NCBI GenBank assembly: GCA_050436805.1
Contig: JBNQGE010000023.1
Span: forward strand, 10,606 to 74,605
DNA length: 64,000 nucleotides
DNA from: Candidatus Saccharimonadota bacterium
Lineage (GTDB): Bacteria; Patescibacteriota; Saccharimonadia; Saccharimonadales; UBA4665
Reading direction: 5' to 3'
The notes under the pieces were generated by a model. The model was not told the DNA's origin, searched no databases, and worked only from the letters and a program-made list of their open reading frames with translations. Of this stretch, positions 34,430 to 53,478 are shown piece by piece; the first letter of the stretch is position 1; the number at the start of each line of letters is the position of its first letter. Both the position numbers and the translations under genes were made by a program.

Positions 34430-34600
34430 CCCTGCAGTGACCACAAAACGTGCCGCTGATACTTTTGCTTGCATTGGTTCTCGTCCTCCGTCAGCCGAAC
34501 AAAAAGAAGTGTCCGAGCAGTTGCTGCCTGGGCGCTTCTTTGTTAGTCCTGTCTGGATCTACGTTCGAATTTGTAGTAGAGGTCAATCCTCTACAGAGGT
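34430..34600. repeat. Junction module copy 'a' (degenerate): conserved spacer, long hairpin and family-1 site
   Basis: Homologous to 42100-42250. The hairpin AAAAAGAAGTGTCCGAGCAG-TTG-CTGCCTGGGCGCTTCTTT is at 34501-42. The site is TGTTAGTCCTGTCTGGATCTACGTTCGAATTTGTAGTAGAGG. Confidence 0.65.
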
Positions 34601-34609
34601 AAAGTATTG

Positions 34610-35020
34610 TTACTTCAAATAGCCAAGTTTTTGGAACAGGATTCGAGATGGAGGAACAATATCGTACGACGGCAGATCTTCGGGTTCGACCCATTCAATC
34701 TTTTCAATTCCTTCGGCAGGTTGGATTGCACCGCTCACGTATTCGCACTCAACGTCCAGATAAACAAAGAATTTCTCGATGCCGTCAAGGTCGTTCTTAA
34801 CTTCTGTATCCCAGGATATTTTGTTTTTGATAGCTACGTGTACACCGGACTTCGCGAGCACTTCGTCAATGATGGCCTGGTCAGGGTCAGCGCTGGAGGT
34901 AGCTTCGGCACCAAATATGTACCATGTTTCTTTGTAGGGCGGAGAGCCAGCAGGCTTTTTGCGCATTAAAATTGCACCATCTTTTTTCACGACGCCGACA
35001 ATAAGTACTTTTGTTTGCAT
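34610..35020 (-). CDS. Nudix-fold protein with a degenerate Nudix box
   Basis: 136 aa. ..FGAEATSSADPDQAIIDEVLAKSGV.. occupies the Nudix-box position but lacks several of the Glu residues. Confidence 0.55.
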   Translation of the reverse strand: MQTKVLIVGVVKKDGAILMRKKPAGSPPYKETWYIFGAEATSSADPDQAIIDEVLAKSGVHVAIKNKISWDTEVKNDLDGIEKFFVYLDVECEYVSGAIQPAEGIEKIEWVEPEDLPSYDIVPPSRILFQKLGYLK

Positions 35021-35077
35021 AGTGCAAGTATACCAGATACTTCGGACCAGCCAGGTAAAGTGCGTTATTATAAGAGG

Positions 35078-35410
35078 ATGAATTTCACTCGAGTCAAAAT
35101 CACCACCACTGTTCCCTTAGAAAATGCGGATGCCGTGCGCCACGCCCTTGGCGAAGCTGGAGCTGGTGTCATCGGCAATTACAGTTTTTGTAGCTTTTCG
35201 GTGATTGGTAAGGGCTGGTTCATGCCTAATGAAGATGCAAATCCCCATATTGGTTCAGCAAATGTGCTCGAAGCAGTTGAAGAAGAAAGAGTTGAGGTTG
35301 TTTGTGATCGCAAAAACGCCAAGCAAGTAATAGTTGCACTAAAAGCGGCACATTCGTACGAGGAAGTTATTGTAGACATCACGCCACTTATCGACGAGGA
35401 TCAATTGTGA
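35078..35410 (+). CDS. Stand-alone NIF3/YqfO-type PII-like insert-domain protein
   Basis: ..AGAGVIGNYSFCSFSVIGKGWFMPNEDANPHIG..RVEVVC...ALKAAHSYEEVIVDITPL matches the insert domain of NIF3-family proteins. The start is placed at ATG 35078. Confidence 0.6.
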   Translation: MNFTRVKITTTVPLENADAVRHALGEAGAGVIGNYSFCSFSVIGKGWFMPNEDANPHIGSANVLEAVEEERVEVVCDRKNAKQVIVALKAAHSYEEVIVDITPLIDEDQL

Positions 35411-35465
35411 AAAATGTCCTAATTTTGAGCACAGCGATTGGCTTGCCGGGAGACGTGGCGAGGTC

Positions 35466-36092
35466 GTGAAGGATCAAGACAAGACCAGGGCTGCCTACGA
35501 CAACGTTGTTGAGCTATATGCTTCAATGTTTGCGAATCGGCTAGAGACACAGCCATTTTCACGAGCCATGCTCAATACTTTTACCGAGCTAGTACATGGA
35601 AATGGAAACCTGCGAGTAGCTGATGTTGGGTGCGGACCCGGAGATCTAACGGCCCTGCTGCGTGAGCTGGGGTTGGATGCGTTTGGACTTGACCTCTCGC
35701 CGGGCATGGTTGAGCATGCTCGGCGGGCCAATCCAACGTTGCAATTTGAGGAGGCACGAATGGAGGCTCTACCAGTCGAGAGTGGTACGCTCGGCGGTAT
35801 ACTAGCTCATTATTCAATGATTCATACCCATCCCGAAGAGCTGCCTGCGATATTCACCGAACAAGCACGTGTCTTGGCGCCAGGAGGGCTCATCTTGGTT
35901 TCGTTCTTCGGGACCGATCGAGCCGAGCCGGTTCAATTCGATCACAAGGTAGCGCCCGCCTATAGCTGGCCGATTGATCAGCTCGTCAAGTTACTGACTG
36001 ATGCTGGGCTCGTTACCTTTGCTCGACTGATCCATGATCCAGATTCTGAGCGAGGATTTCTTGATGCTCATGTGCTAGCCCGGCTCAGGTAG
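35466..36092 (+). CDS. Class I SAM-dependent methyltransferase
   Basis: Motif I VADVGCGPGDL. GTG start. Confidence 0.7.
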   Translation: MKDQDKTRAAYDNVVELYASMFANRLETQPFSRAMLNTFTELVHGNGNLRVADVGCGPGDLTALLRELGLDAFGLDLSPGMVEHARRANPTLQFEEARMEALPVESGTLGGILAHYSMIHTHPEELPAIFTEQARVLAPGGLILVSFFGTDRAEPVQFDHKVAPAYSWPIDQLVKLLTDAGLVTFARLIHDPDSERGFLDAHVLARLR

Positions 36093-36186
36093 TTTGAACT
36101 TTGTAGCTAATGACTATGCAAAAGCCCTCAGTCTCATCAGTGTGTGATGAATGTGACCGAGGGCGTCAGCACCGTGCAGCGAGACC

Positions 36187-36633
36187 TCAGATGAGGCCGC
36201 GGAGATACTGGAAGAAGAGCTGACCCGGGCCACGATTCCACAGGATGACAGCCTGGATGGTGACGCAGACGTCAGCGGGAAGGCCATTGGCCCGATGGAA
36301 GAAGCCACGGAGGTCGACGCTGCTGGCCGGCCTTGTGTTTGGGATGTACACCTGGATGAGGTAGGGCTGGTTCCGGTTGATCGAGGGGGTGACCTCCTCC
36401 ATGACTCGAAGAGAGTCAAAGAGTCGGTTGCCGAACTTAGTCGTAGGGCCGCCACCCAGATCGGGGCTGACGCGTCCGAAGACACCCTGTCGCTTGACCG
36501 CCATCGGCAGTCCCACGATGAAATGTGTACCGTCATCGTGGACTTCGGCAGACATCACCTGGAAGTTGGAGTTGCCGTCGCACAACTGCTGTCTTGCTTC
36601 TTCTCGCAGCATTGCTTGGGTGCTGGTTTTCAT
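36187..36633 (-). CDS. GC-rich hypothetical protein
   Basis: The start is placed at ATG 36633 (MKTSTQAML..), with GGAG 9 nt upstream. The fold is not recognisable. Confidence 0.45.
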   Translation of the reverse strand: MKTSTQAMLREEARQQLCDGNSNFQVMSAEVHDDGTHFIVGLPMAVKRQGVFGRVSPDLGGGPTTKFGNRLFDSLRVMEEVTPSINRNQPYLIQVYIPNTRPASSVDLRGFFHRANGLPADVCVTIQAVILWNRGPGQLFFQYLRGLI

Positions 36634-36745
36634 GGTTGTACTCCAAAGTCGGAGGAACATGACAACAATATTTATACCATATAATTAACATATCATCAAA
36701 TATACTAGAAAAGGTACGTTGCCCACACTCGGAAAAATGAAATAG

Positions 36746-36814
36746 TCCAAGCAGCAACTGCTCGGACGCTTCTTTTGACAGTCTGCCTGAACTAAGTTCG
36801 AATTTTATGTCATC
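36746..36814. repeat. Junction module copy 'b': 5'-truncated hairpin plus family-1 site
   Basis: TCCAAGCAGCAACTGCTCGGACGCTTCTTTTGACAGTCTGCCTGAACTAAGTTCGAATTTTATG is nearly identical to 42178-42240. Confidence 0.75.
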
Positions 36815-37268
36815 TGCTATACAGGCCAGCCAGCTTGGCCGAAGTAATAATGTACGTTTGAATTGCCGCCTCAATGGTCGCTCGAGGTGCAGTAGCAGCC
36901 AAATCCAACATCCTGTCCAGTGCGTATAGCTCAAAAATGTAGCGATGCATACCTGTTCCTTTTGGGGGCATAGGACGGATATAGTTTGTTTTCTTCATGT
37001 CATTCATTCCTATAATGGCGCCCTGGGGAATGGCGCCTTCGGCGATGGTAGCAGTATTGGAGTGAATATTCCACACAGCCCAATGGAGGAAATCTTTCTT
37101 CCTAGCGTCAGGATCGTGCATAAGTAGCACAAGGCTAGCCGTTCCCTCGGGTACATCGTTAATAATAAGTGGAGGGTTTTGATTCTTACCCGTAAAACCA
37201 TAGGGCTCAGGAATCTGACTCATATTAGTAAAAACAGGACTCGTAAGCTTCATTGTGCTCCTTTTCAT
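36810..37268 (-). CDS. YbhB/YbcL (PEBP/Raf-kinase-inhibitor-like) family protein
   Basis: LVLLMHDPDA, HWAVWNI and GMHRYIFELYALD. Confidence 0.75.
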   Translation of the reverse strand: MKRSTMKLTSPVFTNMSQIPEPYGFTGKNQNPPLIINDVPEGTASLVLLMHDPDARKKDFLHWAVWNIHSNTATIAEGAIPQGAIIGMNDMKKTNYIRPMPPKGTGMHRYIFELYALDRMLDLAATAPRATIEAAIQTYIITSAKLAGLYSR

Positions 37269-37439
37269 ATCTCTACTCTAGAGTAATCTTGAATTTATTT
37301 CACATTGTAAAAACATCTACAAGGTAGGGCGATAATTTTAGATATTCAGATAATAGGGGACATAGCGTACGGACAACCCAGAGTGGTACCATAGGCCTTA
37401 AGGCGAAGAAGAAATCATGCAAAACAAGGAGGTACTGTA

Positions 37440-37970
37440 ATGACGCAGTCTAATCTCTCATGCGAGACACAGCAACTATGTGCGATTGCCGCGACCGGGC
37501 AATATCTCTTTCACGGAACGAACCTTGAGTACCCTGTGCTATATTCATCGATACCTCATTGGAATTATGAGGGCAACACCTACCCGGATAGTGACATTCC
37601 GGTTGTCTGCGCCATGGACAAGCCTCTCGTGCCTACCTTTATGGGGCTCATCGCGGTAACCAACGCACGTCCATGTCGATCTCTTACGAACGAATTGGGC
37701 GGTAAGGATTTCGCCGTGCCTACTCGTAGCCGTGAGTCTTTGGAGCAAGCCGTGGGCTTTGTGGCGATACTCTCTCGTGATCTATTTGAGCTTGTCGAAG
37801 ACATCGAAGTACCAGCAGGTTACTCTGGTCCTCGCCCTGGGGGCAGGCGAGCGGAGTGGCGTAGTTATGCGGGGAGCTTGGAGCCGGTTGGTTACGTATC
37901 TGTTACGTTCGATGACTTTTTGGGACTTCTGTCAACTGCGCCCGAGTCGACTTTTAGGTTCATGGATTAA
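37440..37970 (+). CDS. Hypothetical protein
   Basis: 176-aa ORF with a GGAGG SD upstream. Confidence 0.5.
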   Translation: MTQSNLSCETQQLCAIAATGQYLFHGTNLEYPVLYSSIPHWNYEGNTYPDSDIPVVCAMDKPLVPTFMGLIAVTNARPCRSLTNELGGKDFAVPTRSRESLEQAVGFVAILSRDLFELVEDIEVPAGYSGPRPGGRRAEWRSYAGSLEPVGYVSVTFDDFLGLLSTAPESTFRFMD

Positions 37971-38424
37971 TGCCCATCTTCTTAATTCGGTAGTTGGTAA
38001 ACGTACCCTGTCTAATCGAGCGACCAATCTCGCGTACCACTTTTGGTTTATCACTTTGCATGCGTACGATAAAGGCCTCACTGGCAAGAGAATCTGCATC
38101 GTGCTCGAGGCCCCATAGTGTCAACTCTATGAGCATTGGGATGAGTTGCTCGCCTTTTTCTGTGACAGTATAGATGTATTGGTTCCTTAGTGTGAGGTCA
38201 CGCCGTTTCTCAATAATACCTTGCTGTTCTAGCTTTTTGAGCCGATCACTGAGCACATTAGTCGCTGCTTTTTCCTGTGGCGTGAAGTCACTGAAGCGGG
38301 TACGGTGATAAAAAATAATGTCACGCAAAATGAGTAATGACCATTTGTCACCAAAAACATCCAGCGCAAAACTGATCGGACAGCTGGACCTACGCTTAGA
38401 TCTATTTTCATCGATTTCCTGCAT
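37960..38424 (-). CDS. HxlR-family transcriptional regulator
   Basis: CPISFALDVFGDKWSLLILRDI. Confidence 0.75.
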   Translation of the reverse strand: MQEIDENRSKRRSSCPISFALDVFGDKWSLLILRDIIFYHRTRFSDFTPQEKAATNVLSDRLKKLEQQGIIEKRRDLTLRNQYIYTVTEKGEQLIPMLIELTLWGLEHDADSLASEAFIVRMQSDKPKVVREIGRSIRQGTFTNYRIKKMGINP

Positions 38425-38503
38425 CTCAGCATCTTAACATCCTTGTCTTTTGCAAGCAACCTGTCTATACTCCGAAGTGACTATAAAAAGCAAAGGGTGA
38501 AAA

Positions 38504-38923
38504 ATGAGCATACATATTGATTGGGTCGCGGTTGTTGTAGCGCTAGTGGCGAGTATGGTTCTGGCAAAGACTTGGTTCACGCCAAAGGCATTCGGTGGTC
38601 CATGGCGAAAGTATACGGGCATTACTTCGGCAGATTCCAAAAAAGCCGGGAAGCGACCGATTATATTGACGCTGTTTGCAAACATCCTAACAATAGTAGC
38701 GCTTGCCGCCACGATTAATATAAGCGCTGTGTTCTTCCAAAATAACTCTGTTTGGCTCTCTTCGGCTGTTGGCCTTGCCTCCTGGCTAGCCTTTTCAGCA
38801 ACAACGCTTGCCACTCATAACGCCTTTGAACAGAAGCCGCAAAGATTAACCCTCATTAATAATGGATACCAGTTCGTCCTATTTCTAGCCACGTCAGTAA
38901 TCATTGGTTGGTTTGGCGCATAA
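38504..38923 (+). CDS. DUF1761-like membrane protein
   Basis: Four TM segments and an N-terminus ..WVAVVVALVASMVLAKTWFTPKAFGGPW. Confidence 0.55.
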   Translation: MSIHIDWVAVVVALVASMVLAKTWFTPKAFGGPWRKYTGITSADSKKAGKRPIILTLFANILTIVALAATINISAVFFQNNSVWLSSAVGLASWLAFSATTLATHNAFEQKPQRLTLINNGYQFVLFLATSVIIGWFGA

Positions 38924-38924
38924 G

Positions 38925-39254
38925 ATGGCCTACAATGAACCGCGAACTGAGCAAGTGCGTATCTTGCTTGCAAATATCCCTAACGTTACAGAGAAGAAAA
39001 TGTTTGGCAGCGTAGGCTTCATGGTCGATGGCAAGTTATGCCTAGGTGTGGGCGACCATGCCGACCATAACATGATGGTGCGCATCGGCATTGAAAAGTA
39101 CGGAGAAGCGCTGCAGCACCCTGGCGCATCGCCTGCAGTAATGCGAGGACGAGAACAACCGGGCTATGTGTTTCTGACTAACGAGGCAATTCAAACTCAA
39201 AATGATTTAGAGTACTGGGTAGATTTGGCCTTGGAATATAACAGGAGTTTGTAG
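38925..39254 (+). CDS. TfoX/Sxy N-terminal-domain protein
   Basis: ..VTEKKMFGSVGFMVDGKLCLGV.. The start is placed at ATG 38925, directly after the upstream stop. Confidence 0.55.
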   Translation: MAYNEPRTEQVRILLANIPNVTEKKMFGSVGFMVDGKLCLGVGDHADHNMMVRIGIEKYGEALQHPGASPAVMRGREQPGYVFLTNEAIQTQNDLEYWVDLALEYNRSL

Positions 39255-39321
39255 ATATGGCTCACCAATTGCATAACGTAGTTTTCGGGCTAGGCGATGA
39301 TGGAAATGGTATGATAACACC

Positions 39322-39609
39322 ATGATTATGACTATTATCCTCAGTTTCCTGGCAGGTGCCTGGTTTGGAAACGGCATACCGCATTTTGTGCGAGGCATCA
39401 CCAGACAAAACTATCCTTCAATGTTAGGCAACAAACCTATTCCTAACCTTATTGCTGGATGGATGGCCCTAGCAACAACACCACTATGGTTATATTGGTC
39501 GCAGGCAGCTAGCTATCCGGTACAGGCATGGGTTGCGGGTGCCTTCGGAGTTCTTGCTATTGGTTTATTCCATGCTGGCCCTGGTGCATTTGGTAAGCAA
39601 GATAAGTAG
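39322..39609 (+). CDS. Small membrane protein
   Basis: 95-aa ORF with 3 hydrophobic segments. Confidence 0.45.
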   Translation: MIMTIILSFLAGAWFGNGIPHFVRGITRQNYPSMLGNKPIPNLIAGWMALATTPLWLYWSQAASYPVQAWVAGAFGVLAIGLFHAGPGAFGKQDK

Positions 39610-39634
39610 AGTAAATTAACGCATAAGAGGGTCT

Positions 39635-40066
39635 ATGTCAGATTACGTTCAACCAACTCATAAGTTTGTAGCAGTTTTGAACAAAAAGATTCCCGAAGGT
39701 CGCTTAATGAACGCCTTAGCTCATGCTACTGCCGGTTTAAGCGCCACGTACCCCGAAGTTGCCGCAATGCGCTTTGATAATTACGAGGATAAATCAGGCA
39801 ACATACATCAAAGCATATCTGACAACCCATTCATTATTCTCCGTGCTGATAACTCCAACAAATTGCGGGCGCTGCGTCAGCAACTCGTCGAGCAGGACAT
39901 CTGCTTCACTGATTTTGTAGATACGATGACAGAAGGCACATACACTGAGCAGCAGGAACGTACCAAGAATACGAACGAAGAAGACCTAGAATACTTTGCC
40001 GTTGTTATGTTTGGTGAAAATGAAGTACTCAATGTGCTCAATAAGAAGTTTTCTCTCTGGCACTAG
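39635..40066 (+). CDS. DUF2000-like protein
   Basis: 143 aa. The call rests on general resemblance from memory, and there is an AGAGGG SD. Confidence 0.45.
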   Translation: MSDYVQPTHKFVAVLNKKIPEGRLMNALAHATAGLSATYPEVAAMRFDNYEDKSGNIHQSISDNPFIILRADNSNKLRALRQQLVEQDICFTDFVDTMTEGTYTEQQERTKNTNEEDLEYFAVVMFGENEVLNVLNKKFSLWH

Positions 40067-40142
40067 CCTACTAGTGAAGAGATGAGAAAATTTGGCCTGA
40101 AACTTCTGTCGCAATATCAGTATCTAGGATATAGTGAGTCTT

Positions 40143-40902
40143 TTAAGGTTTTTCTGGCAACTCAAACTCAGCCCAGCAGAGGTAGTGGTCAGACTGTGTC
40201 TGCACAATGTTCGAATCTGTAAGCCGCCATTCTGGGCTATACAATATATGGTCAGGATGGGTACCATGGCTTAGTTGATATATTCGGCAACGCGTCCTTC
40301 AGGCTAAACTTCTCGAGTAGAAGCGGGAATGCATTTGATAAGTCATGTTGATTGAAGTCAGCTGGAAATAATAATGGACGGCTTAACGCGCCCGCAAGAA
40401 GAGTGTCTATACCGTGACCCAGATCTTTTCCCAAGCCCGTATCGTATTGTAGGCCAAAAGCACCGAGCGGCTCGGTGTGTATATTTGCAACTGTAAAGCT
40501 ATTGAATGTTACGACCTGTGCGTAGCGGTCATAGGGCGGAACAACCTTACCACTATGTTGAAATTTTAACTCAAAAGTTGGATGAGGTAGCAAAAGTGAC
40601 TGCTCAGTCGTAAACGGTATTCTGGAAATTATAGCGGTGGTGAGCATATACGTTGAATCAATATGGGACGGGCAGCCAGGTGATTCGGCAACATAAGACA
40701 TATCTAACGAGTTTGCTAGGAGCTCTGCAAGACTATTGTGCGAATTGGCATGCGATTCCTGCAGGCACACAATATCTAGTTGCAATGTCTGCAATTGTTC
40801 CGCAAAATAATCGAGTTCTTCTTGCGTACCATAATCAAATCGCTCCATAGAGAGCATTTTGCGTGCTCCTGCGATATTCCATGTGCCAACACGTATTTTC
40901 AT
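40143..40902 (-). pseudogene. Endonuclease/exonuclease/phosphatase (EEP) family gene, frameshifted near the 3' end
   Basis: The ORF 40252..40902 ends ..STKPWYPS*. The +1 frame continues HPDHILYSPEWRLTDSNIVQTQSDHYLCWAEFELPEKP* and carries the catalytic C-terminal (S)DH motif. Confidence 0.65.
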
Positions 40903-40956
40903 TCCTCAATAATACTACAAAATGCCATACCTTTTCGGTTAGAACTTCCGAGGAGC

Positions 40957-40988
40957 CTCTCAGGGCTAAGTTCGAACTTTGAGAGAGG
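40957..40988. repeat. Site copy 'c': near-perfect palindrome around AAGTTCGAAC
   Basis: CCTCTCAgggctAAGTTCGAACTTTGAGAGAGG. Confidence 0.6.
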
Positions 40989-41027
40989 AGGCCTAGGAAA
41001 AATAGCCGGTGATGCTATAATAAATGC

Positions 41028-41129
41028 ATGGCACAGGCAACAAAATCTCCTACACCAAAAGTTAAAGACTGGACTAAGAAGTTCGTAAAGAAATACAGCC
41101 CAGCTTTAAAAGAGTTGTCTAAAAAATAA
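41028..41129 (+). CDS. 33-aa ORF, possible antitoxin partner of Doc
   Basis: MAQATKSPTPKVKDWTKKFVKKYSPALKELSKK* ends 2 nt before the Doc start. The ORF is not in the supplied track and I have no homology evidence for it. Confidence 0.3.
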   Translation: MAQATKSPTPKVKDWTKKFVKKYSPALKELSKK

Positions 41130-41131
41130 TC

Positions 41132-41540
41132 ATGTTCGGCGGCGATCCAGAAGAAGACCTTCGGATTCTTTGCTATATTCATGATGCAATTATCGATGAG
41201 AGTGGTGGCTCCAAGGGTTTTCATAACGAGCACTTAGTTCGTTCTGCATTAGCTCGGCCAAATCATAGCGCGTTTGGCAAAGATGCCTACACCGACCTTT
41301 TTACAAAAGCAGCAGCCTTGCTCGATTCAATCGCCAATAATCACGGCTTTCGTGATGGTAATAAACGCTACTGTGATGGCGGCGGCCGTATTGTTTTTAC
41401 ACTTGCATGATATTACGGTGCAGTTTACCAACCAAGAATATGAGGAAGTCATGTTGCACGTGGTGAATGATAAGCCACCGGTTGAGGAAATCAAAGGCTG
41501 GCTCATCCAACACTCTGACAATAAAGAGAGTAGCCGATGA
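41132..41540 (+). pseudogene. doc: Doc (death-on-curing, Fic-fold) toxin gene with a 1-nt frameshift
   Basis: The Fic motif HGFRDGNKR is followed by a frame change at ~41369. Skipping one T restores ..DGNKRTVMAAAVLFLHLHDITV...EEIKGWLIQHS. Confidence 0.65.
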
Positions 41541-41848
41541 GGCGCAAGAAGCGCGTAATGCTACTCTTGTTTTCTTTAGTATCTGTCTCCGTTGTCGGTC
41601 TGTTCATTTGTAACCGTGACACTAGAAAATTTGTGCAGCCCACAGGAAACCTAGTCATGGGGAGCGATACGCAACTAGCAAAAAAGGTGGCTGCATATGC
41701 AGCTCATTATTTAAACTTCACCTCATGTAATGCAACTGTGTATGGCCACGATGGTACATATATTTATGCGCATACATCCTGCAGTAGCTACAGCTCCAGT
41801 TCGGCAAATATCGGGTTGCGTACAATTTCAAGACACAGCAGGTTCTAA
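41537..41848 (+). CDS. Membrane-anchored hypothetical protein
   Basis: 103 aa with an N-terminal TM segment. It overlaps the end of Doc by 4 nt. Confidence 0.45.
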   Translation: MRRKKRVMLLLFSLVSVSVVGLFICNRDTRKFVQPTGNLVMGSDTQLAKKVAAYAAHYLNFTSCNATVYGHDGTYIYAHTSCSSYSSSSANIGLRTISRHSRF

Positions 41849-41952
41849 AAGTAATCCTTGTGGGTGATGACAACCAAAATCCCAGCCCCAACGAGATACT
41901 GCCAAGCAAAATAGTCAAAGTGATACCTGTGTCTGATTATTAGATACGCAGC

Positions 41953-46541: not shown

Positions 46542-46931
46542 CTAGTTTTTGAATCCTTGAATTTCCCGTAGCAGCTCACGGACATCTTGTAACGGCTCAT
46601 GCTTTAATATGACCGGCTTGTATTCCTCAAGAGTCTCGGTGAGCTCATCTTCTGTCATCGCAATGTAAAATTTATGTTCGCCATCTTTGAGTTCAGGCCT
46701 GAATACTGTGAATGAGCCACAGAGTCCATTCGCTCGAGAACCCACAAAGAAATCAAGTTCCACACCATCTTCGCCTGTGAAGCCCGGTAAATAGCCATAT
46801 TCTGAAGCAAAGGTCACACCTTTAAGCGGATAATCGCTCGCGCTCCCAAAATCTTTGTAATCACCACGCTGCATTTCGATAAAAATAGTATCGAGCGGCG
46901 CAGGCAGGGAAGTTAGAGCAGTACTTTTCAT
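46542..46931 (-). CDS. Inorganic-pyrophosphatase-like small protein
   Basis: EYGYLPGFTGEDGVELDFFVG resembles the family I PPase motif (YGYI..T..DGDPLDVLV). Confidence 0.45.
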   Translation of the reverse strand: MKSTALTSLPAPLDTIFIEMQRGDYKDFGSASDYPLKGVTFASEYGYLPGFTGEDGVELDFFVGSRANGLCGSFTVFRPELKDGEHKFYIAMTEDELTETLEEYKPVILKHEPLQDVRELLREIQGFKN

Positions 46932-46967
46932 ATGCCACTAGTGTAACAGCTAGGGTATACTTTGAAT

Positions 46968-47348
46968 ATGAACCAGACTACAGTTACGGGATTTCGGCTC
47001 AAGCTTTATCCGAAAGATTTCGCGAAAGCTCGAGCCTTCTATGAGCAAACACTTGGTTTTGTAGTTATCAATGAATGGGACCGAGGCGAGCACGATCGTG
47101 GTGTTATGCTACAAGTTGGACCAGCAATTATTGAACTGCTAACACCCGAGACAAACTACACACCGGTAGCTGGTGCTGATCTCTCACTGGAAGTGCCTGA
47201 CGTTCGTGCATTGTGGCAAGATTTGAAAGACAGAACAGATGTTGTGTTTGTGCTGCGTGATAACGACTGGGGCGATAGCTCGTTTTGTGTCAATGATCCA
47301 GAACGATTTGAGATTACATTTTTCACCCCACAAGAGCAACAAAAATAA
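46968..47348 (+). CDS. VOC/glyoxalase family protein
   Basis: ..LYPKDFAKARAFYEQTLGF..; ..DPERFEITFF. Confidence 0.65.
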   Translation: MNQTTVTGFRLKLYPKDFAKARAFYEQTLGFVVINEWDRGEHDRGVMLQVGPAIIELLTPETNYTPVAGADLSLEVPDVRALWQDLKDRTDVVFVLRDNDWGDSSFCVNDPERFEITFFTPQEQQK

Positions 47349-47365
47349 CCGGTAAGGACTACGTC

Positions 47366-47848
47366 ATGGAACACCCCGTTCACCAGCAAATCACCGATAT
47401 ACTTCGCGAGCACAATTACTGGTTCGAGGAATTTCAACATGAAGCTGTGCGTACCAGCGAAGAAGCTGCCGAGATCCGGGACGGCTATACATTACAACAA
47501 GGTGCCAAAGCTCTGATCGTGAGAATAAAAATCCCTAGCGAAGGCAAAAAGTTCGTCATGCTTGTCATGCCCGCAGACCAGAAATTTGACAACGTGAAAG
47601 CCAAGCAAGTACTGGGAGCAAAGGACATTCGCTTTGCGACGGAAGATGAAGTTGCAGAAATCACGCACGGTGTAAAACCCGGCGGCGTACCACCATTTGG
47701 GAATCTGTTCGGGCTTGAAGTAATCAGCGACAAAACTCTATACGACAACGAAAAGATCGTATTTAATGCTGGGCGGACAAGCTCTATTGGTATGAAGTCG
47801 GCAGATTATAGAATACTCGGGCGGCCGATTATTGCTGAGATTGTATAA
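47366..47848 (+). CDS. YbaK/EbsC/ProX-type aminoacyl-tRNA deacylase-domain protein
   Basis: ..KALIVRIK..; ..GVKPGGVPPFGNLFGLEV. Confidence 0.6.
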   Translation: MEHPVHQQITDILREHNYWFEEFQHEAVRTSEEAAEIRDGYTLQQGAKALIVRIKIPSEGKKFVMLVMPADQKFDNVKAKQVLGAKDIRFATEDEVAEITHGVKPGGVPPFGNLFGLEVISDKTLYDNEKIVFNAGRTSSIGMKSADYRILGRPIIAEIV

Positions 47849-48253
47849 ATGGATGCTGAAGCCACCTGGTACCGAGTAAGCACCAAGGCTGTCGTCATTA
47901 AAGCCAGCAAGCTATTGTTTGTCAAAGAAGGTACCGATCTTTGGGATCTGCCAGGTGGCGGGCTTGAACATAACGAAACCACAGTTGAAGGCTTAGCTCG
48001 TGAAGTACAGGAAGAGCTTGGTGTGCATGTCAAGACTAATAGTGACTTGCCGATCTTTGTTTGGAAGACCTACGATGAGGCGAATAAACGGCCGATCATC
48101 GTCCTGGGTTATAAAGTCGAATTAGCTTCAGAAGATTTTGTGCTGCAAGAGCCAGTTCGTGATATTGCCTTTATTGATCCAGCTGCACTGACCACAAATG
48201 ATTTTGAACCGTACGTCCGTGACTTTTATCGCAACATCCTAAAACTGGTATAG
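47849..48253 (+). CDS. Nudix hydrolase
   Basis: GGGLEHNETTVEGLAREVQEELGV. The start abuts the upstream stop. Confidence 0.8.
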   Translation: MDAEATWYRVSTKAVVIKASKLLFVKEGTDLWDLPGGGLEHNETTVEGLAREVQEELGVHVKTNSDLPIFVWKTYDEANKRPIIVLGYKVELASEDFVLQEPVRDIAFIDPAALTTNDFEPYVRDFYRNILKLV

Positions 48254-48261
48254 TAGGTAGC

Positions 48262-48735
48262 ATGACCCACGAAGCCTACATGCGCGAAGCAATAAAGATC
48301 GCCAAAGAAACAGAGGCCCAAGGCGGTGCGGCAATCGGTGCGATACTCGTGAAAGATGGAGAGATCATCGCCGTAGGCCATAGCCTTCCTGGGCTTACCT
48401 TTGACGCGACAGCACACGGTGAAACAACTGCCATACGGGCAGCATGTCAGAATCTTAAAACAATTAACCTCGATGGTTGCATGCTCTACTCAACGCTTGA
48501 ATCATGCGGTATGTGTTTGAGTGCCGCAGTCTGGAGTAATCTCAGCGCATGTTATTTCGGCGCTTATGCTAGCGACGTGCCGGAGAACCACTACGAGCTG
48601 AAGGACTACGGCGCCGAAAAACTCGCACCACAAACACAACGTTGGGATGGCACGCCTGTTCAAGTTACGGGTGGTATTTTGCGTGAGAAATGCAAGGCGT
48701 TGCTCGAGGGATATAAAGATTGGACGAAACAATGA
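48262..48735 (+). CDS. Cytidine/deoxycytidylate-type nucleoside deaminase (TadA/guanine-deaminase-like)
   Basis: H(G)E zinc motif ([12 protein letters not shown]) and ..[10 protein letters not shown]. Confidence 0.65.
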
Positions 48736-49279
48736 AAAACGCCATAATTCTCCACGGCACGATGGGATCGCCCGAAGGCAACTGGTTCCAATGGCTTAAG
48801 TCTGAACTGGAAGGCAAAGGTTTTACCGTCTGGTTGCCACACAGCTCCCTCATCCCGAGCAACCATCACTTCGCGCTGAAGCAGATTTTGTGCACATCAA
48901 CTGTCCATTTCCAATCAACGAAGAGACACTTATCATCGGCCATTCAAGTGGCGCCATTCTTGCGCTCATCCTGGCCCAAGAAAACGTAACTCCAATCGGT
49001 AAGATTGTGGCCGTTTCGGTATTTCACGATAACTCACTCAATTGGGATGCAAATGCTCGACTATTCGATGTTATGTTTGACTGGCAAAAGATCAAAGACC
49101 ACGTTCAGGACTTAACTTTTGTTCATTCTGATGACGATCCATATGTACCACTTAGCCAAGCTCAATACGTGGCCGATCACTGTGGCGCTCGGCTCATCAT
49201 GATTCCCGGCCAGGGCCATTTCAACCTTGAGAAAAGTAAAGAATACTTAGCGTTTCCAAGGCTACTGGAGCTCCTGTGA
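48732..49279 (+). pseudogene. RBBP9/YdeN-type alpha/beta serine hydrolase, frameshifted
   Basis: The N-terminus [34 protein letters not shown] is in one frame. [38 protein letters not shown].. continues in another frame, and the shift is near 48835-48845. Confidence 0.6.
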
Positions 49280-49380
49280 AAGTCATCATGTACCCAGCCA
49301 TCGACGGTTTCATTGCTATTAATGTTTACAATGATACTAGCTTTCAAAAGTTGGTTGAAATATTTAAAGTAAAAGGTAAC

Positions 49381-49728
49381 TTAATCGCCTAGGCCGTAAT
49401 AACCTTCAACGGGTTGAATATTTATAGTGTGGATATCTAGATTGCACGGATTAAGTTCTTGGGCAATTTCTTCCCCCACTGCTTGCGTCGAAGGCGCGCG
49501 ATAACCCTTAGTAGGCGTGATTATGAATGCCGTGCCTTCCTCGTCTTGGCGCGTCACTGCGACATCTTCTGCTAGGACTAACGTGTTAAATTCTCTCTCA
49601 CTTCTAGTGGTAAGCCTTTTAACTAATCCATCTAACGCAATCATGGGGAGCGGTGGTTGAATTTCTACAGCATATTCTCGTACATCCGCGTCTGGACTAA
49701 GTTCAGCAACATAAACATTGTAATTCAT
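49381..49728 (-). CDS. Hypothetical protein
   Basis: 115-aa ORF. Confidence 0.45.
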   Translation of the reverse strand: MNYNVYVAELSPDADVREYAVEIQPPLPMIALDGLVKRLTTRSEREFNTLVLAEDVAVTRQDEEGTAFIITPTKGYRAPSTQAVGEEIAQELNPCNLDIHTINIQPVEGYYGLGD

Positions 49729-49787
49729 AAAAATTATTATAACATATAGCTAATTAAAGATACGTCGTCAGTCGACGGGCGAGGTAT

Positions 49788-49826
49788 TTAGTCCTCCGGT
49801 AACTACGTCGAACTTTTAACAGGAGT
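49788..49826. repeat. Site copy 'h' (degenerate family 1)
   Basis: TTAGTCCTCCGGTAACTACGTCGAACTTTTAACAGGAGT. Confidence 0.55.
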
Positions 49827-49833
49827 ATTTCAC

Positions 49834-50583
49834 TCAGGCTTTCTTCGCCAGAAAAATCATTTCGTGGTCATCATTTGCGAACGGCTTAGAGGCCCAGTCA
49901 CCGTAGACATACTCAAACATAAACCCGGCATCCTGCAAAGTTTCAGTTATTTCTTCTTTGGTGCGGAAGCGAAGTTCATTGGCAGAGATTAACTCCTTGC
50001 CGGCGCCCTTAAAGTGGTAGTGAAGTTCATACACTGCTCGACAGCCATCGTAATTGAGGTTTTCTGGCCACCATTCAACGGGGCCAAGCGGCGTCTGCGG
50101 TATTTGGCCCGTGTACGATTTTGTTGGCCAATCCGCAAAAGGCCGCACGAGCGGGTTGCGACTCTCGAAAACCAAATAACCGCCAGGCTTAAGCGCACGA
50201 TACATACTTCGTAAGGCCTGCTGCCATATGTCATCATCCAAAAAGAACTGAGCAACATGTCCAGCCATAATAACAAGGTCTGCCTGCATGTCAGTCCGTA
50301 ATGCCTCTGCGCTACCAGCTATCCATTCAGCCTCATTGCCGTACTTTTTCTTAGCCTGTTTGAGCATTTCAGGCGCAGGTTCAATGCCGATAACCTCGTG
50401 GCCTTTTTTGACTAACTCGTTGCTGAGCAATCCTGTACCGCAACCAAGATCAATAACTTTTTCGATGTTAAGCTCATCGGCAAGGCTGAGATAAAAATCA
50501 ACGTAGCTGCTAATTGGATTAACGGCATCATAAATTGTGACAAGCATAGGGTCAGTAAATTCAGTGTAATTTTGAGTGGGCAT
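49834..50583 (-). CDS. Class I SAM-dependent methyltransferase
   Basis: VIDLGCGTGLLS. Confidence 0.75.
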   Translation of the reverse strand: MPTQNYTEFTDPMLVTIYDAVNPISSYVDFYLSLADELNIEKVIDLGCGTGLLSNELVKKGHEVIGIEPAPEMLKQAKKKYGNEAEWIAGSAEALRTDMQADLVIMAGHVAQFFLDDDIWQQALRSMYRALKPGGYLVFESRNPLVRPFADWPTKSYTGQIPQTPLGPVEWWPENLNYDGCRAVYELHYHFKGAGKELISANELRFRTKEEITETLQDAGFMFEYVYGDWASKPFANDDHEMIFLAKKA

Positions 50584-50587
50584 ATGA

Positions 50588-50989
50588 TTAATCAGCCCAC
50601 TTTATAGTTGCGTCACGGTCAAATAAGATTTTAATAGTATGCTCTTTCTTGCTAAAGACAAAGTTGCGGCTATGCTCCTGTAAATCCAGCTCGATCACTT
50701 GCTCTTCAGGAAAACCACGCAGGTGGAATGTGTGTTTTTGGAGCTTAGGATCAGTAGAGTAGATGCCTCGGGATTTCTCCCAGTCAATTGCTCCAACTTT
50801 GAGAAGGGTATTGCGAAACGCGTCGATACACTGCACAAAAGCCCCATCTTCAATGTCTAGCCATACATCAATGTCAGAATGTTCATTGTTGCGTCCCGTT
50901 GCCCACGAGCCTTCCAGCCACATCGCATGTATTTCGGGGATAGTCTGAACATCGGGTAGAATCTTCTGGATTATATCGAACAGTGTCAT
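50588..50989 (-). CDS. Nucleotidyltransferase-domain protein (ANT/Lnu-like minimal NTase)
   Basis: GSWATGRNNEHSDIDVWL (GS-x9-11-DxD). Confidence 0.7.
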   Translation of the reverse strand: MTLFDIIQKILPDVQTIPEIHAMWLEGSWATGRNNEHSDIDVWLDIEDGAFVQCIDAFRNTLLKVGAIDWEKSRGIYSTDPKLQKHTFHLRGFPEEQVIELDLQEHSRNFVFSKKEHTIKILFDRDATIKWAD

Positions 50990-51011
50990 GTTTACATGAT
51001 AACAGATCGAG

Positions 51012-51530
51012 TTAGCTAGTGCTGGGTGTCTTCAAATTGACGGTTTTTCTAATAAACGTCACGCTTTGCTCGACTGAATTGGTTTCGGGAATGGTAAATT
51101 CAAAGTCATAGCCCAATGATTCCACCGGCTGATACCATTCGCGCATTTGCTCAGCACTAAAAGCATGGCGCAGTTCACGTGTTTGGTGTCGACGTGCAGT
51201 TTCTTCAAATGAGACATCAAAGTTAAAAATAAAGTTATCCTGCGGATGATACTTTGCAAGAATTTGCGCCAAATAGTTCCGGTTCCGCTCGTGGGCGAAG
51301 AAAATACTATCCCAAATAACGTCAAAATCATGATCAAGGCAATACTTCACATTAAGCGCCATTAAGTCGCCGAGCGCTTCGCCATATTGGCCCTTAGGGA
51401 AGAGCATATGTTCACGGTAATAGTCACCGGCAATGATGGCCGTTTTGCGAGTGGTGTCTTTGACAAGCTCGCGCGCGACGGTGCTTTTGCCGGAACCAGA
51501 ATTGCCACGCAGAATAATGAGCTTAGACAT
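51012..51530 (-). CDS. P-loop kinase (AAA_33/zeta-toxin-like small-molecule kinase fold)
   Basis: Walker A LRGNSGSGKST. Confidence 0.65.
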   Translation of the reverse strand: MSKLIILRGNSGSGKSTVARELVKDTTRKTAIIAGDYYREHMLFPKGQYGEALGDLMALNVKYCLDHDFDVIWDSIFFAHERNRNYLAQILAKYHPQDNFIFNFDVSFEETARRHQTRELRHAFSAEQMREWYQPVESLGYDFEFTIPETNSVEQSVTFIRKTVNLKTPSTS

Positions 51531-51555
51531 GGCACTATAGTAGCATTTCCGAAGT

Positions 51556-51723
51556 AAAAGTTCGAACGTTGCACATCTGGTGGAGAGACAGGGCTCGAAC
51601 TTGATTTTACAGAGGCGGAATAGAAAAATCCGAGCAGTTGATGACTCGGATTTTGAGGTCTGACCTCTGTCATTCTAACTTGGCAGTCCTTCAAGAACTA
51701 AGTTCAAACCTGTAACAGAGGTG
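51556..51723. repeat. Composite junction 'i-j': family-2 site, foreign tRNA-like 3' fragment, small hairpin, then TGGCAG fused directly to a family-1 site
   Basis: AAAAGTTCGAACGTTGCACATCTGGTGGAGAGACAGGGCTCGAAC..CCGAGcagttgatgaCTCGG..CTTGGCAGTCCTTCAAGAACTAAGTTCAAACCTGTAACAGAGGTG. Confidence 0.75.
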
Positions 51724-51730
51724 CTATATG

Positions 51731-52540
51731 CTAAGCACTTCGAATAATTTCGGCTACGGTCGCGTAGAAACCAGCCGGATTGTCAGTCATGAGCGCATGG
51801 CCGCTACGTGCTACCTCATAAGTAACAGAGCTTTCAAGTTTCGGCACAACATCTTTCTTGCGTTTGCCATTGGCACTATATATGTACGCTTTGTGCGGCA
51901 AGGCAGTGAATAGAGGCAAAAGCTTTTTGCTATCAGACCATGCAACCAAGGATTGGATACTTCGATATAGGCCCAATGGACCTGCTTCACTAAACCATCG
52001 CGCCCACGGCCGCATACTCCGCCTCGGATGATACCGTAAAAGAGTTACGAGGAGCGGCAGCGTAACGAGTTTGAATAGCCAGAAGGGTCGATGAGCTATC
52101 GCACGCGCATCCGCACCACTGCCGTTAGGCGCCAGGTTACTCTCGGCATTAATAAATATGGCGAGATTCTTAATCAAAGGTACGGCCAGGAGTCCGATGC
52201 TTCCGCCCATACTGTGTCCTACCAAGTAAACCTTTTTTGCTTTAAGTGAGTTAACTGCCAAAGCGACAATATTTGCTTGGTCGAGCAAATCATATGAGAA
52301 ATCGTCCGGCTTTTCTGATGCGCCAAAGCCCAGTAAGTCGATAGTGCAGATACTGTATTCTTTCAGTGCATCTGCTGTGAATGATTCGGCAAAGCACTCT
52401 TTGCCGCCGCCCCAACCGTGCAAGAAAACCACAAGACTATCTGTATGCGTATTGTGGCGTAACTTTGTAGAAAGCGTGTAGCTTCTGCCCTCATGCGTTA
52501 CGTGTAATTCAAGTATACGACTTTCCATACTCTCCATCAT
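51731..52540 (-). CDS. Alpha/beta hydrolase
   Basis: GHSMGG nucleophile elbow and HGWGG. Confidence 0.75.
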   Translation of the reverse strand: MMESMESRILELHVTHEGRSYTLSTKLRHNTHTDSLVVFLHGWGGGKECFAESFTADALKEYSICTIDLLGFGASEKPDDFSYDLLDQANIVALAVNSLKAKKVYLVGHSMGGSIGLLAVPLIKNLAIFINAESNLAPNGSGADARAIAHRPFWLFKLVTLPLLVTLLRYHPRRSMRPWARWFSEAGPLGLYRSIQSLVAWSDSKKLLPLFTALPHKAYIYSANGKRKKDVVPKLESSVTYEVARSGHALMTDNPAGFYATVAEIIRSA

Positions 52541-52597
52541 ACCAGTAATACTTGTCTCGGCTACCGAGGAAGAGGCTTGATAAATAATAAATGAAGT

Positions 52598-52849
52598 CTA
52601 TTCAATTCCTGTATAGTGACAGTACTTCTTGAATTCTGTTTGGTCAGCCGGTTCTAGACCTGCATGTTTACCATCCAAGTTATAGTAAAACCCTTGCTTT
52701 GCCTTAATGGGCTGCGTGCATTGGTAAATAAAGAGCTGCTTATCTTCATAGGTGGTAAGCTTCTGCTGGGCGCGGGCATAGGATATTAGGATACCGATTA
52801 GTGATAGGCTCGTTGCGGCTATTACCGTAATAATTATTCGCCTGGCCAT
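52598..52849 (-). CDS. Small single-TM protein
   Basis: The start is placed at ATG 52849 (MARRIIITVIAATSLSLIGILI..). Confidence 0.4.
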   Translation of the reverse strand: MARRIIITVIAATSLSLIGILISYARAQQKLTTYEDKQLFIYQCTQPIKAKQGFYYNLDGKHAGLEPADQTEFKKYCHYTGIE

Positions 52850-53259
52850 TTGGCTTCTACGTGCTGAGTTAAAGTCTCGACTAGCCTCTGCATATTTGGC
52901 GGCAATTGCAAGTTGGACATTTCTTGCAGACTGAAGAAGCGTAGCTCTTGGCATTCGTCAGATGCAGTAAAATCAAGGCTCTTCAGCTCAATCTGGTAAA
53001 TGATATTTGCAATATAAACATTACTGGATGCCTTGTGTGCTGTAACAAAGTACTTTGGCTCAGGCCAGACTTTTGTCACAGTCAGATCAGTCTCTTCCTG
53101 GACTTCACGTTTGAGGCAGGCGATCGGATCTTCGCCGTGATCAAGGCCGCCGCCAAGCATATCCCATGTTCCGTCGCTTTCACGGGCCAGCAAGACGCGA
53201 TCTTGATCGTCGATGACGATTCCCTTGACACTGACACGGTAGTAGCAGGCTTCATTCAT
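52834..53259 (-). CDS. Nudix hydrolase
   Basis: GGGLDHGEDPIACLKREVQEETDL. The start is placed at ATG 53259, because the longer ORF runs into the direct repeat. Confidence 0.8.
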   Translation of the reverse strand: MNEACYYRVSVKGIVIDDQDRVLLARESDGTWDMLGGGLDHGEDPIACLKREVQEETDLTVTKVWPEPKYFVTAHKASSNVYIANIIYQIELKSLDFTASDECQELRFFSLQEMSNLQLPPNMQRLVETLTQHVEAKWPGE

Positions 53260-53278
53260 GCATACATGATAACAGATT

Positions 53279-53402
53279 GGGTTTGAACTTTGCATGTTTG
53301 GGGTGGTGACTAGGCTCGAACCAGATTCTACAGGGGTGGGAATAGAAAAATCCGAGGTTGTTACAACTCGGGTTTTGAGGTTTGACATCTGTTATTTCTT
53401 CG
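53279..53402. repeat. Right direct repeat: family-2 site, tRNA-His-like 3' fragment (53299-53322) and small hairpin, abutting tRNA-Trp
   Basis: See 41953..42097. The hairpin AAAAATCCGAG-gttgttacaa-CTCGGGTTTT probably also terminates tRNA-Trp transcription. Confidence 0.8.
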
Positions 53403-53478
53403 TGGCAGGGGAGACAGGACTCGAACCTGCGACACTCGGTTTTGGAGACCGATGCTCTACCAACTGAGCTACACCCCT
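53403..53478 (-). tRNA. trnW: tRNA-Trp (anticodon CCA), CCA end encoded
   Basis: Manual cloverleaf:
- acceptor AGGGGUG/CUCCCCU (one U-U mismatch);
- D arm GCUC-AGUUGGUA-GAGC;
- anticodon arm UCGGU-CUCCAAA-ACCGA;
- T arm GCAGG-UUCGAGU-CCUGU;
- discriminator G73 followed by CCA. Confidence 0.85.

Follow-up and report, generated by a model that had tools for sequence, protein, structure and literature searches.

A window of 64,000 nucleotides from the genome of a Candidatus Saccharimonadota bacterium (GenBank assembly GCA_050436805.1, contig JBNQGE010000023.1, positions 10,606 to 74,605; coordinates below are those of this window unless a relative is named) contains an island in which small blocks of unrelated genes, bounded by repeats, extend from about 34.5 kb to a gene for tRNA-Trp at 53.4 kb. 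The tRNA gene (CCA; 53403-53478, minus strand) was identified by ARAGORN and by a 68.6-bit match to the Rfam tRNA model, and was the only Rfam match in the island. Among the cargo lies a single gene for a large serine recombinase (LSR; 44182-45771, plus strand), no other copy or fragment of which was present in the window. The G+C content of the island is 0.44-0.48, as against 0.50-0.52 on its tRNA-distal side. A first-pass annotation of this DNA had described the region as an integron-like cassette array anchored at tRNA-Trp and carrying one recombinase, with the TTCGAA palindrome of the repeat as the recombination core. The tRNA anchor, the bounded blocks and the lone recombinase were all confirmed, and the proposal that the repeats are recombination-site derivatives tied to that recombinase was supported; the palindromic core and the integron analogy were not sustained.

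The repeat motif AAGTTCGAAC, allowing at most one mismatch, was matched 27 times on the two strands of the window (4.1 ± 1.9 expected; none of 100 shuffles gave 27 matches), and 20 of these 27 matches fell within 34.5-53.3 kb. All 11 intergenic copies previously noted in the island, here called a to k, were recovered in place, 10 of them within one mismatch of AAGTTCGAAC. The remaining copy, h (49804, TACGTCGAAC), carries three mismatches and was assigned to family 1, as a degenerate member, because its flanks match. The division of the copies into two families was borne out by repeat finding and alignment. Family 1 has the consensus TGGCAGTCC-N6-AACTAAGTTCRAAC-N5-ACAGAGGTG, and all of its copies read on the plus strand. 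Three of them are nearly identical (84-91% pairwise over 43-44 nt): site e (42208-42250), which consists of TGGCAG, 17 nt, TCGAAC, N5 and ACAGAGGTG and is preceded by a terminator hairpin; site g (45751-45793), formed by the 3' end of the LSR gene, TGGCAG and the family-1 arm; and site j (51681-51723). Copies a, b and h are degenerate, as had been claimed. Site a (34541-34601; TGTTAG, then TTCGAAT, then ACAGAGGT) is the leftmost junction of the island, site b (36776-36815) has TGACAG, 16 nt and TCGAAT, and site h (49786-49828) has ATTTAG, 16 nt, TCGAAC and ttttAACAGGAGTA. A seventh, palindromic relative, site c (40947-40995), is a near-palindrome about TAAGTTCGAACTT in a divergent intergenic region and may be read as a degenerate family-1 relative.

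The family-2 copies (d, f, i and k) have about 32 nt in common, and in d, i and k these nucleotides open a module of about 125 nt, termed M, that would form the right end of a unit. The three copies, all on the plus strand, are M_d, which together with a 21-nt tRNA-Trp fragment at 42077-42097 spans 41955-42097 (repeat match 41957-42097), M_i (51558-51680; repeat match 51560-51701) and M_k (53279-53402; repeat match 53281-53423), which adjoins the tRNA. Besides the family-2 core with which it opens, each M module contains the decayed remnant of a tRNA-Trp 3' end, a terminator and, adjoining TGGCAG, a mirrored arm; the decayed tRNA end of M_i (51582-51603) outscored every shuffle. Site f (43949-43981, plus strand) is a chimera, in which the first 32 nt or so are M-like and the sequence from GAGGGTGAC onward is the start of a small open reading frame (ORF) that precedes the LSR gene. 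Its similarity reached z = 8-11 against the three M modules and z = 20 against a relative, L065. Two other derivations of M were considered and set aside: the similarity of its right part to the 3' end of an LSR gene was not significant, and neither, on its own, was that of its left part to the 5' end of the relatives' small ORF, only site f being chimeric. Outside the island, the remaining 45 kb of the window hold no copy of the repeat modules, which within the 64 kb are locus-specific rather than a generic promoter or terminator element. Searches for the left half of family 1 and for the family-2 pattern in two metagenome scans, and for the right half of family 1 in a viral-contig scan, gave zero matches.

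Taken from one family-1 site to the next, the island divides into seven putative units: U1 (site a, 34541, to about 36775), U2 (site b to about 40946), U3 (site c to about 42207), U4 (site e to about 45750), U5 (site g to about 49785), U6 (site h to about 51680) and U7 (site j to about 53402). There are 6-7 family-1 junctions in the window, and the units between them are 1.3-4.2 kb long with 2-8 genes each on both strands. As judged from this arrangement, family 1 would represent the left end, or P' arm, of each inserted unit, site e being that of the LSR-carrying unit, g the U4/U5 junction and j the left end of U7. The right ends are of three kinds. U4 ends in the small ORF and the LSR gene, as canonical elements of this type do, its body being cargo. 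U3, U6 (with M_i) and U7 (with M_k) end in M modules and have no integrase, and the earlier suggestion that such integrase-less junction modules mark non-autonomous derivatives fits, in that they do look like right ends of units that are not autonomous. In U1 and U2 the right end is a strong bidirectional terminator hairpin, T2, copies of which lie at 34502-34541, 36745-36785 and 42168-42208 (that is, before sites a, b and e), are 95-97% identical and are followed by T runs. The T2 hairpins are much better kept than the degenerate family-1 copies that adjoin them, and the T2 loop at site a is inverted with respect to those at b and e. A 59-nt block at 34446-34504 is repeated at 42113-42171 (78% identity), before T2 at sites a and e.

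The LSR comprises 529 aa with Resolvase, Recombinase and Zn_ribbon_recom domains (PF00239, 4e-19; PF07508, 2e-15; PF13408, 1.6e-6), has an intact reading frame with a catalytic ARVSS motif at residues 10-14, and matched the PHROG 95 integrase family at 4e-71. Against the NCBIfam Ccr models it scored 113.6 bits for CcrB (cut-off 900), 61.8 for CcrA (700) and 34.2 for CcrC (900). Its last codons read through TGGCAG into site g, and its stop codon, TAA at 45769-45771, does lie inside that site, as had been observed. Homologues of 56-92% identity were found in the hundreds, those bearing a name all being from Candidatus Saccharibacteria. Relatives were taken from a scan of a genome collection with one genome per species, from which 64 loci were fetched and 60 were scanned for tRNAs (loci are cited by number, L001 onward). 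In 44 of the 60, the 3' end of the LSR gene abutted the 3' end of a convergent tRNA gene or lay within about 100-190 nt of it, the tRNA being Trp in 21, Gln in 19 and Asn, Arg, Gly and Ala in one each. Because of this linkage to tRNA 3' ends across the family, the LSR family was identified as the integrase of elements that target tRNA genes.

In close relatives (L001, L002, L005 and L065-L068; 73-92% identity), an opposite-strand helix-turn-helix (HTH) gene, a 54-aa ORF, the LSR gene and tRNA-Trp follow one another, with Replic_Relax, DUF3768 and TrwB/DUF87-like genes farther upstream and the LSR frame continuing into the antisense strand of tRNA-Trp. Past the tRNA, L001 and L068 carry homologues of the genes found at 55-64 kb of the window (AAA_33 kinase, histidine kinase, glycosyltransferase, SecE and NusG). 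Unlike in these relatives, where the LSR gene touches the tRNA and the cargo of U5-U7 is absent, 7.6 kb separate the two genes in the window and begin directly after TGGCAG, a difference that amounts to presence and absence of an insertion. The homologue of the 54-aa ORF lies at 43966-44124 (plus strand; identified by tblastn and comparison with relatives), the ATG start used by the relatives being replaced in the window by family-2 sequence. The ORF matched nothing in Pfam, NCBIfam or PHROG; a directionality factor or a regulator is possible. At its 5' end (43949-44015; L065:9796-9840) stands a motif, TAGAACC, resembling a tRNA T-loop, which is 5 nt farther from a TGGGAG/ATGAGG hexamer than the corresponding motif is in the M modules, so that site f and the M modules form a second pair with this offset; the region could be an operator bound by the integrase or a second att-like site. 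In another relative, L030, a 53-nt repeat occurs three times upstream of the LSR gene (L030:3496-6930; 85-87% identity), in sequence unrelated to the repeats of the window.

The position of strand exchange was approached through the breakpoints of homology. The 3' end of tRNA-Trp, CTGCCA, reads TGGCAG on the plus strand (53403-53408), and homology between the window and its 92% relatives extends from 43972, inside site f, to 45756, ending directly after a TGGCAG. Four types of junction were distinguished, in which this hexamer is flanked by the LSR end and the tRNA (the relatives), by the LSR end and family 1 (site g), by an M module and the tRNA (53403), and by an M module and family 1 (site j). 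The left partners of these junctions are homologous to one another and so are the right partners, while only TGGCAG is common to all four; this is the signature of site-specific exchange within that hexamer. On this comparison the crossover was placed in TGGCAG and not in TTCGAA, a placement that we infer from the junctions; cleavage by the LSR with a 2-bp stagger at the centre of the hexamer would be predicted, and the exact crossover dinucleotide is likewise put forward as a prediction. The palindrome thus lost the role of core that the first-pass annotation had given it: only TGGCAG is shared by the four junction types, and only TGGCTGGG by the attP and attB of a two-element locus, L012. 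Models with the crossover at TTCGAA (of the form X-core-Y and Z-core-W) were rejected, as every breakpoint of homology lies at TGGCAG instead and as exchange there through the family-1 left arm would also inactivate the tRNA. The idea that family 1 is itself a decayed tRNA-Trp 3' end was also rejected, since in a Smith-Waterman scan significant tRNA-Trp 3' fragments were found at 42077-42097 and 51582-51603 only. The first of these is an exact 21-nt 3' fragment broken inside the T-loop. Fragments of tRNA 3' ends that are broken in or next to the T-loop and adjoin an LSR gene or M module were seen at 42097 in the window (ACTCG|CC) and in L030 (about 11549-11575; TTGAACC|AATT), L052 (about 11572-11596; TCGAAC|TTTAAA) and L045 (about 7790-7810; GGAATA|TCC).

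Stacking of elements of this family at one tRNA was directly observed in L012 (L012:9998-20737), where a single tRNA-Gln is accompanied by full-length genes for two LSRs, which have 58% and 38% identity to that of the window. The order there is the first LSR, TGGCTGGG, 17 nt, TCGAACC, 9 kb of cargo, the second LSR, TGGCTGGG, 12 nt and the TCGAACC of the tRNA-Gln itself. Only TGGCTGGG is common to the attP and attB of this locus, and the 17-nt arm equals the tRNA-Gln arm with five inserted nucleotides. The second element has cargo similar in kind to that of the window, including genes for tRNA_bind, prolyl-tRNA synthetase, a reverse transcriptase and three kinases, two of them of the APH type and one AAA_18. 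A displaced tRNA fragment upstream of the LSR gene was found, among the relatives, in L047 only: this locus has an exact 60-nt direct repeat of the 3' part of tRNA-Trp (L047:3181-3240 and 11570-11629), in the style of tyrosine integrases. L047, in which alone among the relatives the two ends of the element were both in range, is an exception to the core of 6-8 nt seen in the window and in L012.

The distances of 12 and 17 nt recurred elsewhere. Wherever a tRNA follows the LSR gene, its T-loop sequence TCGAACC lies 12 nt from the TGGCNG core, and the same distance is kept in the tRNA fragments of L030 and L052; the separation between the core and a T-loop-like motif is exactly 17 nt in L010, in L012 and in sites e, g and j of the window. 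In the half-sites of serine integrases the zinc-ribbon (ZD) motif occupies positions 16-24 in attP and 11-19 in attB, so that attP exceeds attB by about 10 bp in length and its distal motif lies 5 bp farther out in each half-site (Rutherford et al. 2013; PMC3783163), and the offset seen here follows this rule. From TGGCAG outward the arms consist of 7 nt, A-N-N-A-C, either 0 or 5 nt, and TC-R-R-ACC. The tRNA arm (GGGAGAC, AGGAC, no insert, TCGAACC) is matched by the family-1 arm (TCCTTCA, AGAAC, five extra nucleotides TAAGT, TCGAACT) and by the mirrored arms of M_i (AGTTAGA, ATGAC, AGAGG as the insert, TCAGACC), M_k (CGAAGAA, ATAAC, AGATG, TCAAACC) and M_d (GCCTAGA, ATAAC, GGAGG, TCACGCC). With a 5-nt gap, the family-1 arms agreed with the tRNA arm at 10 of 19 positions (p = 0.008) and the M_k arm at 13 of 19 (p = 0.0003), as against 6-8 of 19 when the arms were compared ungapped. 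M_i (24 nt), TGGCAG and site j together form an imperfect palindrome of about 54 bp centred in the middle of TGGCAG, with a dyad of 14/27 that was the best of 90 centres (single-centre p = 0.0024), and this arrangement looks like an attP. On the LSR side, arms across the family showed a peak of T-loop-like motifs 18 nt from TGG (six of eight strict matches). We therefore read AAGTTCGAAC as a mimic of the T-loop that would act, on a P-type arm, as the distal motif for binding, the assignment of particular protein domains to particular motifs being presumptive. The family-2 core, a TGGGGT-like hexamer and a decayed T-loop are spaced by 12 and 11-12 nt, which is attB-type geometry; more speculatively, family 2 may be an attB relic or a secondary landing pad. 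At site f the next T-loop-like motif is 5 nt farther away than in the M modules.

The cargo families named in the first-pass annotation were recovered by Pfam, namely NUDIX, Glyoxalase/VOC, methyltransferases, a nucleotidyltransferase, AAA_33 kinases, hydrolases, a deaminase, PEBP and a frameshifted Fic/Doc. U1-U3 (34602-41954; Pfam and tblastn) carry NUDIX, methyltransferase, PEBP, HxlR, DUF1761, TfoX_N, DUF2000 and endonuclease/exonuclease/phosphatase (EEP) proteins and the frameshifted Doc; U4 (42264-43835) carries a DUF6624-like protein, NUDIX and a histidine phosphatase. In U5-U7 (45924-53259) an EEP protein, VOC, YbaK, NUDIX, a deaminase and Ser_hydrolase are accompanied by a methyltransferase, a nucleotidyltransferase, an AAA_33/CPT-like kinase, an alpha/beta hydrolase and a further NUDIX protein. 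The cargo is compact and apparently intact except for the Doc gene and an N-terminally short Ser_hydrolase. For the former, two adjacent ORFs at 41132-41540 match a single 132-aa homologue in L057 (73-75% identity); the latter has 129 aa (48890-49279) as against 187 aa in L084 (1461-2024). The island retains neither integrase fragments nor genes of the canonical elements (HTH, Replic_Relax, TrwB/DUF87), and PADLOC returned only weak or generic matches for the cargo proteins. Many of the products encoded at 45924-53259 are of small-molecule-modifying or detoxifying likeness (a CPT/zeta-like kinase, a Polbeta/ANT-like nucleotidyltransferase, a VOC/bleomycin-resistance fold, methyltransferases, several NUDIX proteins and the deaminase), and such cargo may matter for a life on hosts that produce antibiotics. 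The U7 hydrolase has homologues (72-76% identity) in other contexts that lack these sites, namely an element that includes a TrwB-like gene and the downstream side of tRNA-Glu. The latter setting was seen for the U7 alpha/beta hydrolase in L080 (9803-10810) and L082 (6340-10819), with 72-74% identity. The tRNA-Glu and the hydrolase are 3.6 kb apart in L082, with Fic, PIN and small genes in between, which suggests that the tRNA-Glu spot is another variable tRNA-anchored site in Saccharibacteria.

Taking these features together, the island is probably the result of tandem accretion, at tRNA-Trp, of about seven units with cargo, all from a single family of LSR elements. Strand exchange would take place within TGGCAG, that is, the last acceptor bases and the CCA of the tRNA gene, and because it falls there the tRNA would stay intact on integration. 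The T-loop of the tRNA, TCGAACC, 12 nt from the core, would act as the distal binding motif of the attB half-site (the B' arm), and the incoming unit would bring a T-loop mimic 17 nt from the core on its family-1, P'-type arm. Each new unit would be inserted beside the tRNA and push the older ones outward, and internal junctions would therefore consist of an older right end, TGGCAG and the family-1 left end of a newer unit. About seven such units would fill 34.5-53.4 kb, of which U4 alone would keep the small ORF and the integrase. We infer this order of events, and likewise that the units without an integrase were either inserted in trans by the U4 integrase or have lost integrases of their own.

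Several observations weigh against accretion of this kind. Both repeat families were found in this genome and in none of the fetched relative loci, and the unit structure therefore rests on a single sequence. The sole other assembly, L083, which comes from another run, is 100% identical to the window over 44867-53449 (8.6 kb), and in that comparison no presence or absence of single units, circle junction, empty site or alternative order was seen. Stacking by one LSR needs a reaction resembling attP x attR, which canonical serine integrases avoid. The sites show no smooth loss of intactness away from the tRNA, h being degenerate and g and e intact, and the half-site architecture is not fitted by the arm at the LSR 3' end (4/19) or by the T2-hairpin arms (3/19). 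Since the deaminase and hydrolase genes occur as a pair, 78% identical, in another gene context in L084 without repeat sites, gene pairs evidently also move without them. A crossover in TGGCAG also fails to account for the four tRNA fragments broken at the T-loop (window 42097, L030, L052 and L045), which may reflect a second recombination activity at the T-loop or deletions. Finally, site g has a dyad of 15/27 about its TTCAAA core, so that the centre proposed in the first-pass annotation is formally possible. That proposal, in which the AAGTTCGAAC palindrome is the crossover core of an integron-like system and families 1 and 2 are hybrid sites flanking the cassettes, gains from the same dyad, from the presence of the palindrome in both families and around each cargo block, and from the breaks inside the T-loop in the fragment at 42077-42097 and just after it in L030 and L052. 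It was nevertheless considered highly improbable, since homology with relatives and between M modules stops at TGGCAG and not at the palindrome, the family-1 sequences on either side of the palindrome are never found apart, exchange in the T-loop through the family-1 left arm would destroy the tRNA, and a palindromic CG centre would have no polarity; no core other than one at the tRNA 3' end explains the 12- and 17-nt spacings or the tandem in L012, and there are no integron features. Hardly any credence was given to the notion that the repeats are intergenic regulatory or terminator elements of the repetitive extragenic palindromic (REP) or miniature inverted-repeat transposable element (MITE) kind, unrelated to recombination. 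Although T2 and M hold strong hairpins with T runs and several copies lie at gene ends, the remaining 45 kb of the window have none, one overlaps the integrase stop codon, and the repeats have the tRNA 3' core in common and imitate the T-loop at the +5 spacing specific to the integrase.

Two further readings were weighed. In one, the island is a working capture platform, in which non-autonomous units that have a full attP when circular (M arm, TGGCAG and family-1 arm) are moved in trans today by the U4 integrase, comparable to the handling of staphylococcal cassette chromosome (SCC) elements that lack ccr or to a functional analogue of an integron. The preservation of e, g and j (about 84-91%), beside M modules at 65-85% and unrelated flanks, would point to selection on the sites or to recent activity; the M arms mirror the family-1 arms with the same P-type spacing, the M modules are compact and of one architecture, unlike random deletion scars, and the LSR frame is intact with its catalytic serine. 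Against this, no circle junction, empty site or alternative order was seen, L083 is identical to the window, the small ORF lacks its usual start codon, the arm on the LSR side fits the half-site model poorly, sites a, b, c and h are decayed, and attP x attR-type reactions are abnormal for serine integrases; present-day activity was regarded as less likely than not. We would advance only tentatively the wider claim that goes with it, of a widespread but undescribed family of integrases in Saccharibacteria for which tRNA genes serve as attB, with exchange in the bases of the CCA end, the T-loop as distal motif and attP arms that imitate the T-arm with 5 bp added, accompanied in this genome by miniature integrase-less units of 1.3-4 kb which have a full palindromic attP, are stacked and reshuffled by one resident integrase, and also bring an attB-like landing pad, made up of the family-2 core, 12 nt, TGGGGT, 12 nt and TCGAACC. 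In the other, the island is a fossil only: canonical LSR elements of at least about 10 kb were integrated serially and whittled down by deletion, the repeats are inert, and the modules were spread by segmental duplication or gene conversion. One LSR is left and several sites are degenerate, the block, T2 and family-1 sequence at a are a diverged duplicate of those at e, the T2 hairpins are 95-97% identical even though the neighbouring family-1 copies differ, and the same arrangement recurs in the second assembly. A wholly inert island was considered rather unlikely all the same, as no pseudogene remnants of HTH, Replic_Relax, TrwB/DUF87 or further LSR genes were found in it, the cargo genes look intact and tightly packed, and the conservation of e, g and j, and of the P-type arms in M, exceeds what neutral decay predicts. 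Serial accretion at tRNA-Trp remained the preferred reading.

Elsewhere in the window, a block of higher G+C content (0.56-0.58; 26000-31100) contains a histidyl-tRNA synthetase gene (27752-29071), and a weak T-box-like Rfam match (30143-30334; 27.7 bits, gathering threshold 93) lies just upstream of a gene with a HisG domain (30376-31053). A probable surface protein of 1079 aa, encoded at 2504-5743, combines DUF4082 and three fibronectin type III repeats with a rhamnogalacturonan-lyase-like beta domain.

That islands can arise through successive insertions at a tRNA, or through LSRs acting at a fixed gene, is already known. Mobile elements of Saccharibacteria and of the candidate phyla radiation (CPR) have barely been described, and literature searches returned no account either of this integrase family or of serine integrases at tRNA genes in Saccharibacteria or Patescibacteria, although absence from such searches is not proof. 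With a core at the CCA end, a distal motif in the T-loop and the +5 bp rule, the attP and attB of a whole integrase family become predictable from sequence, which could provide tools for site-specific integration in organisms that are hard to engineer. The array also suggests how tiny, reduced genomes gather accessory genes at one safe site, many of them resembling detoxifying or antibiotic-modifying enzymes (NUDIX, VOC, CPT/APH-like kinases, nucleotidyltransferase and methyltransferases). If the capture platform were true, it would be a serine-recombinase counterpart of integrons and SCC in ultra-small CPR bacteria.

Like an integron, the island combines an array of promiscuous accessory genes with repeated recombination sites and one adjacent recombinase. 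The analogy drawn in the first-pass annotation did not hold beyond this, since a tyrosine IntI, an attI/Pc and single-ORF attC cassettes are all lacking and each unit has 2-8 genes whose orientations are mixed; the enzyme is a serine recombinase, some units carry their own terminators, and the array is anchored at a tRNA. Nor could it be maintained that no tandem cassette system driven by an LSR had been described, as the SCCmec/ECC and tycheposon islands are close precedents. Tandem SCC elements are known, some of them without recombinase genes. The target of the present island is the CCA end and T-arm of a tRNA and not rlmH with its TATCATAA-type core, and the island, with units of 1.3-4.2 kb in a CPR host, has a single LSR below all Ccr cut-offs rather than a CcrA/CcrB pair. 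In the SCCmec/ECC cassette chromosomes, CcrAB LSRs act on att repeats at rlmH (PMC6222049), and the likeness extends to insertion by an LSR at the 3' end of one conserved gene, variable cargo, att repeats of about 50 bp with inverted repeats, and remnants near the insertion site (PMC6222049).

The LSR itself resembles the phage serine integrases (A118/LI, Bxb1, phiC31 and SPbeta) in its Resolvase, Recombinase and zinc-ribbon domains and in the short core identity of attP and attB. It differs from them in that it acts at the 3' end of a tRNA, the T-loop of which would be the distal motif, the integrase frame overlaps the core, and units are stacked in tandem, which selectivity for attP x attB alone should prevent. 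The tycheposons of Prochlorococcus integrate serially at tRNAs and leave partial tRNAs, 27 of 937 using LSRs (bioRxiv 10.1101/2020.12.28.424599). With these and with Islander-type islands the present one shares the pushing of older elements into the island by new ones, partial tRNAs, degraded elements and small adaptive cargo; no replication genes were seen in the units of the window, and the comparison with tycheposons is one of architecture as described. Most tycheposons, however, use tyrosine integrases that duplicate tens of nucleotides of the tRNA, whereas the attP and attB of the island share about 6-8 nt and have, instead of a copy of the tRNA, a mimic of its T-arm at a shifted spacing.

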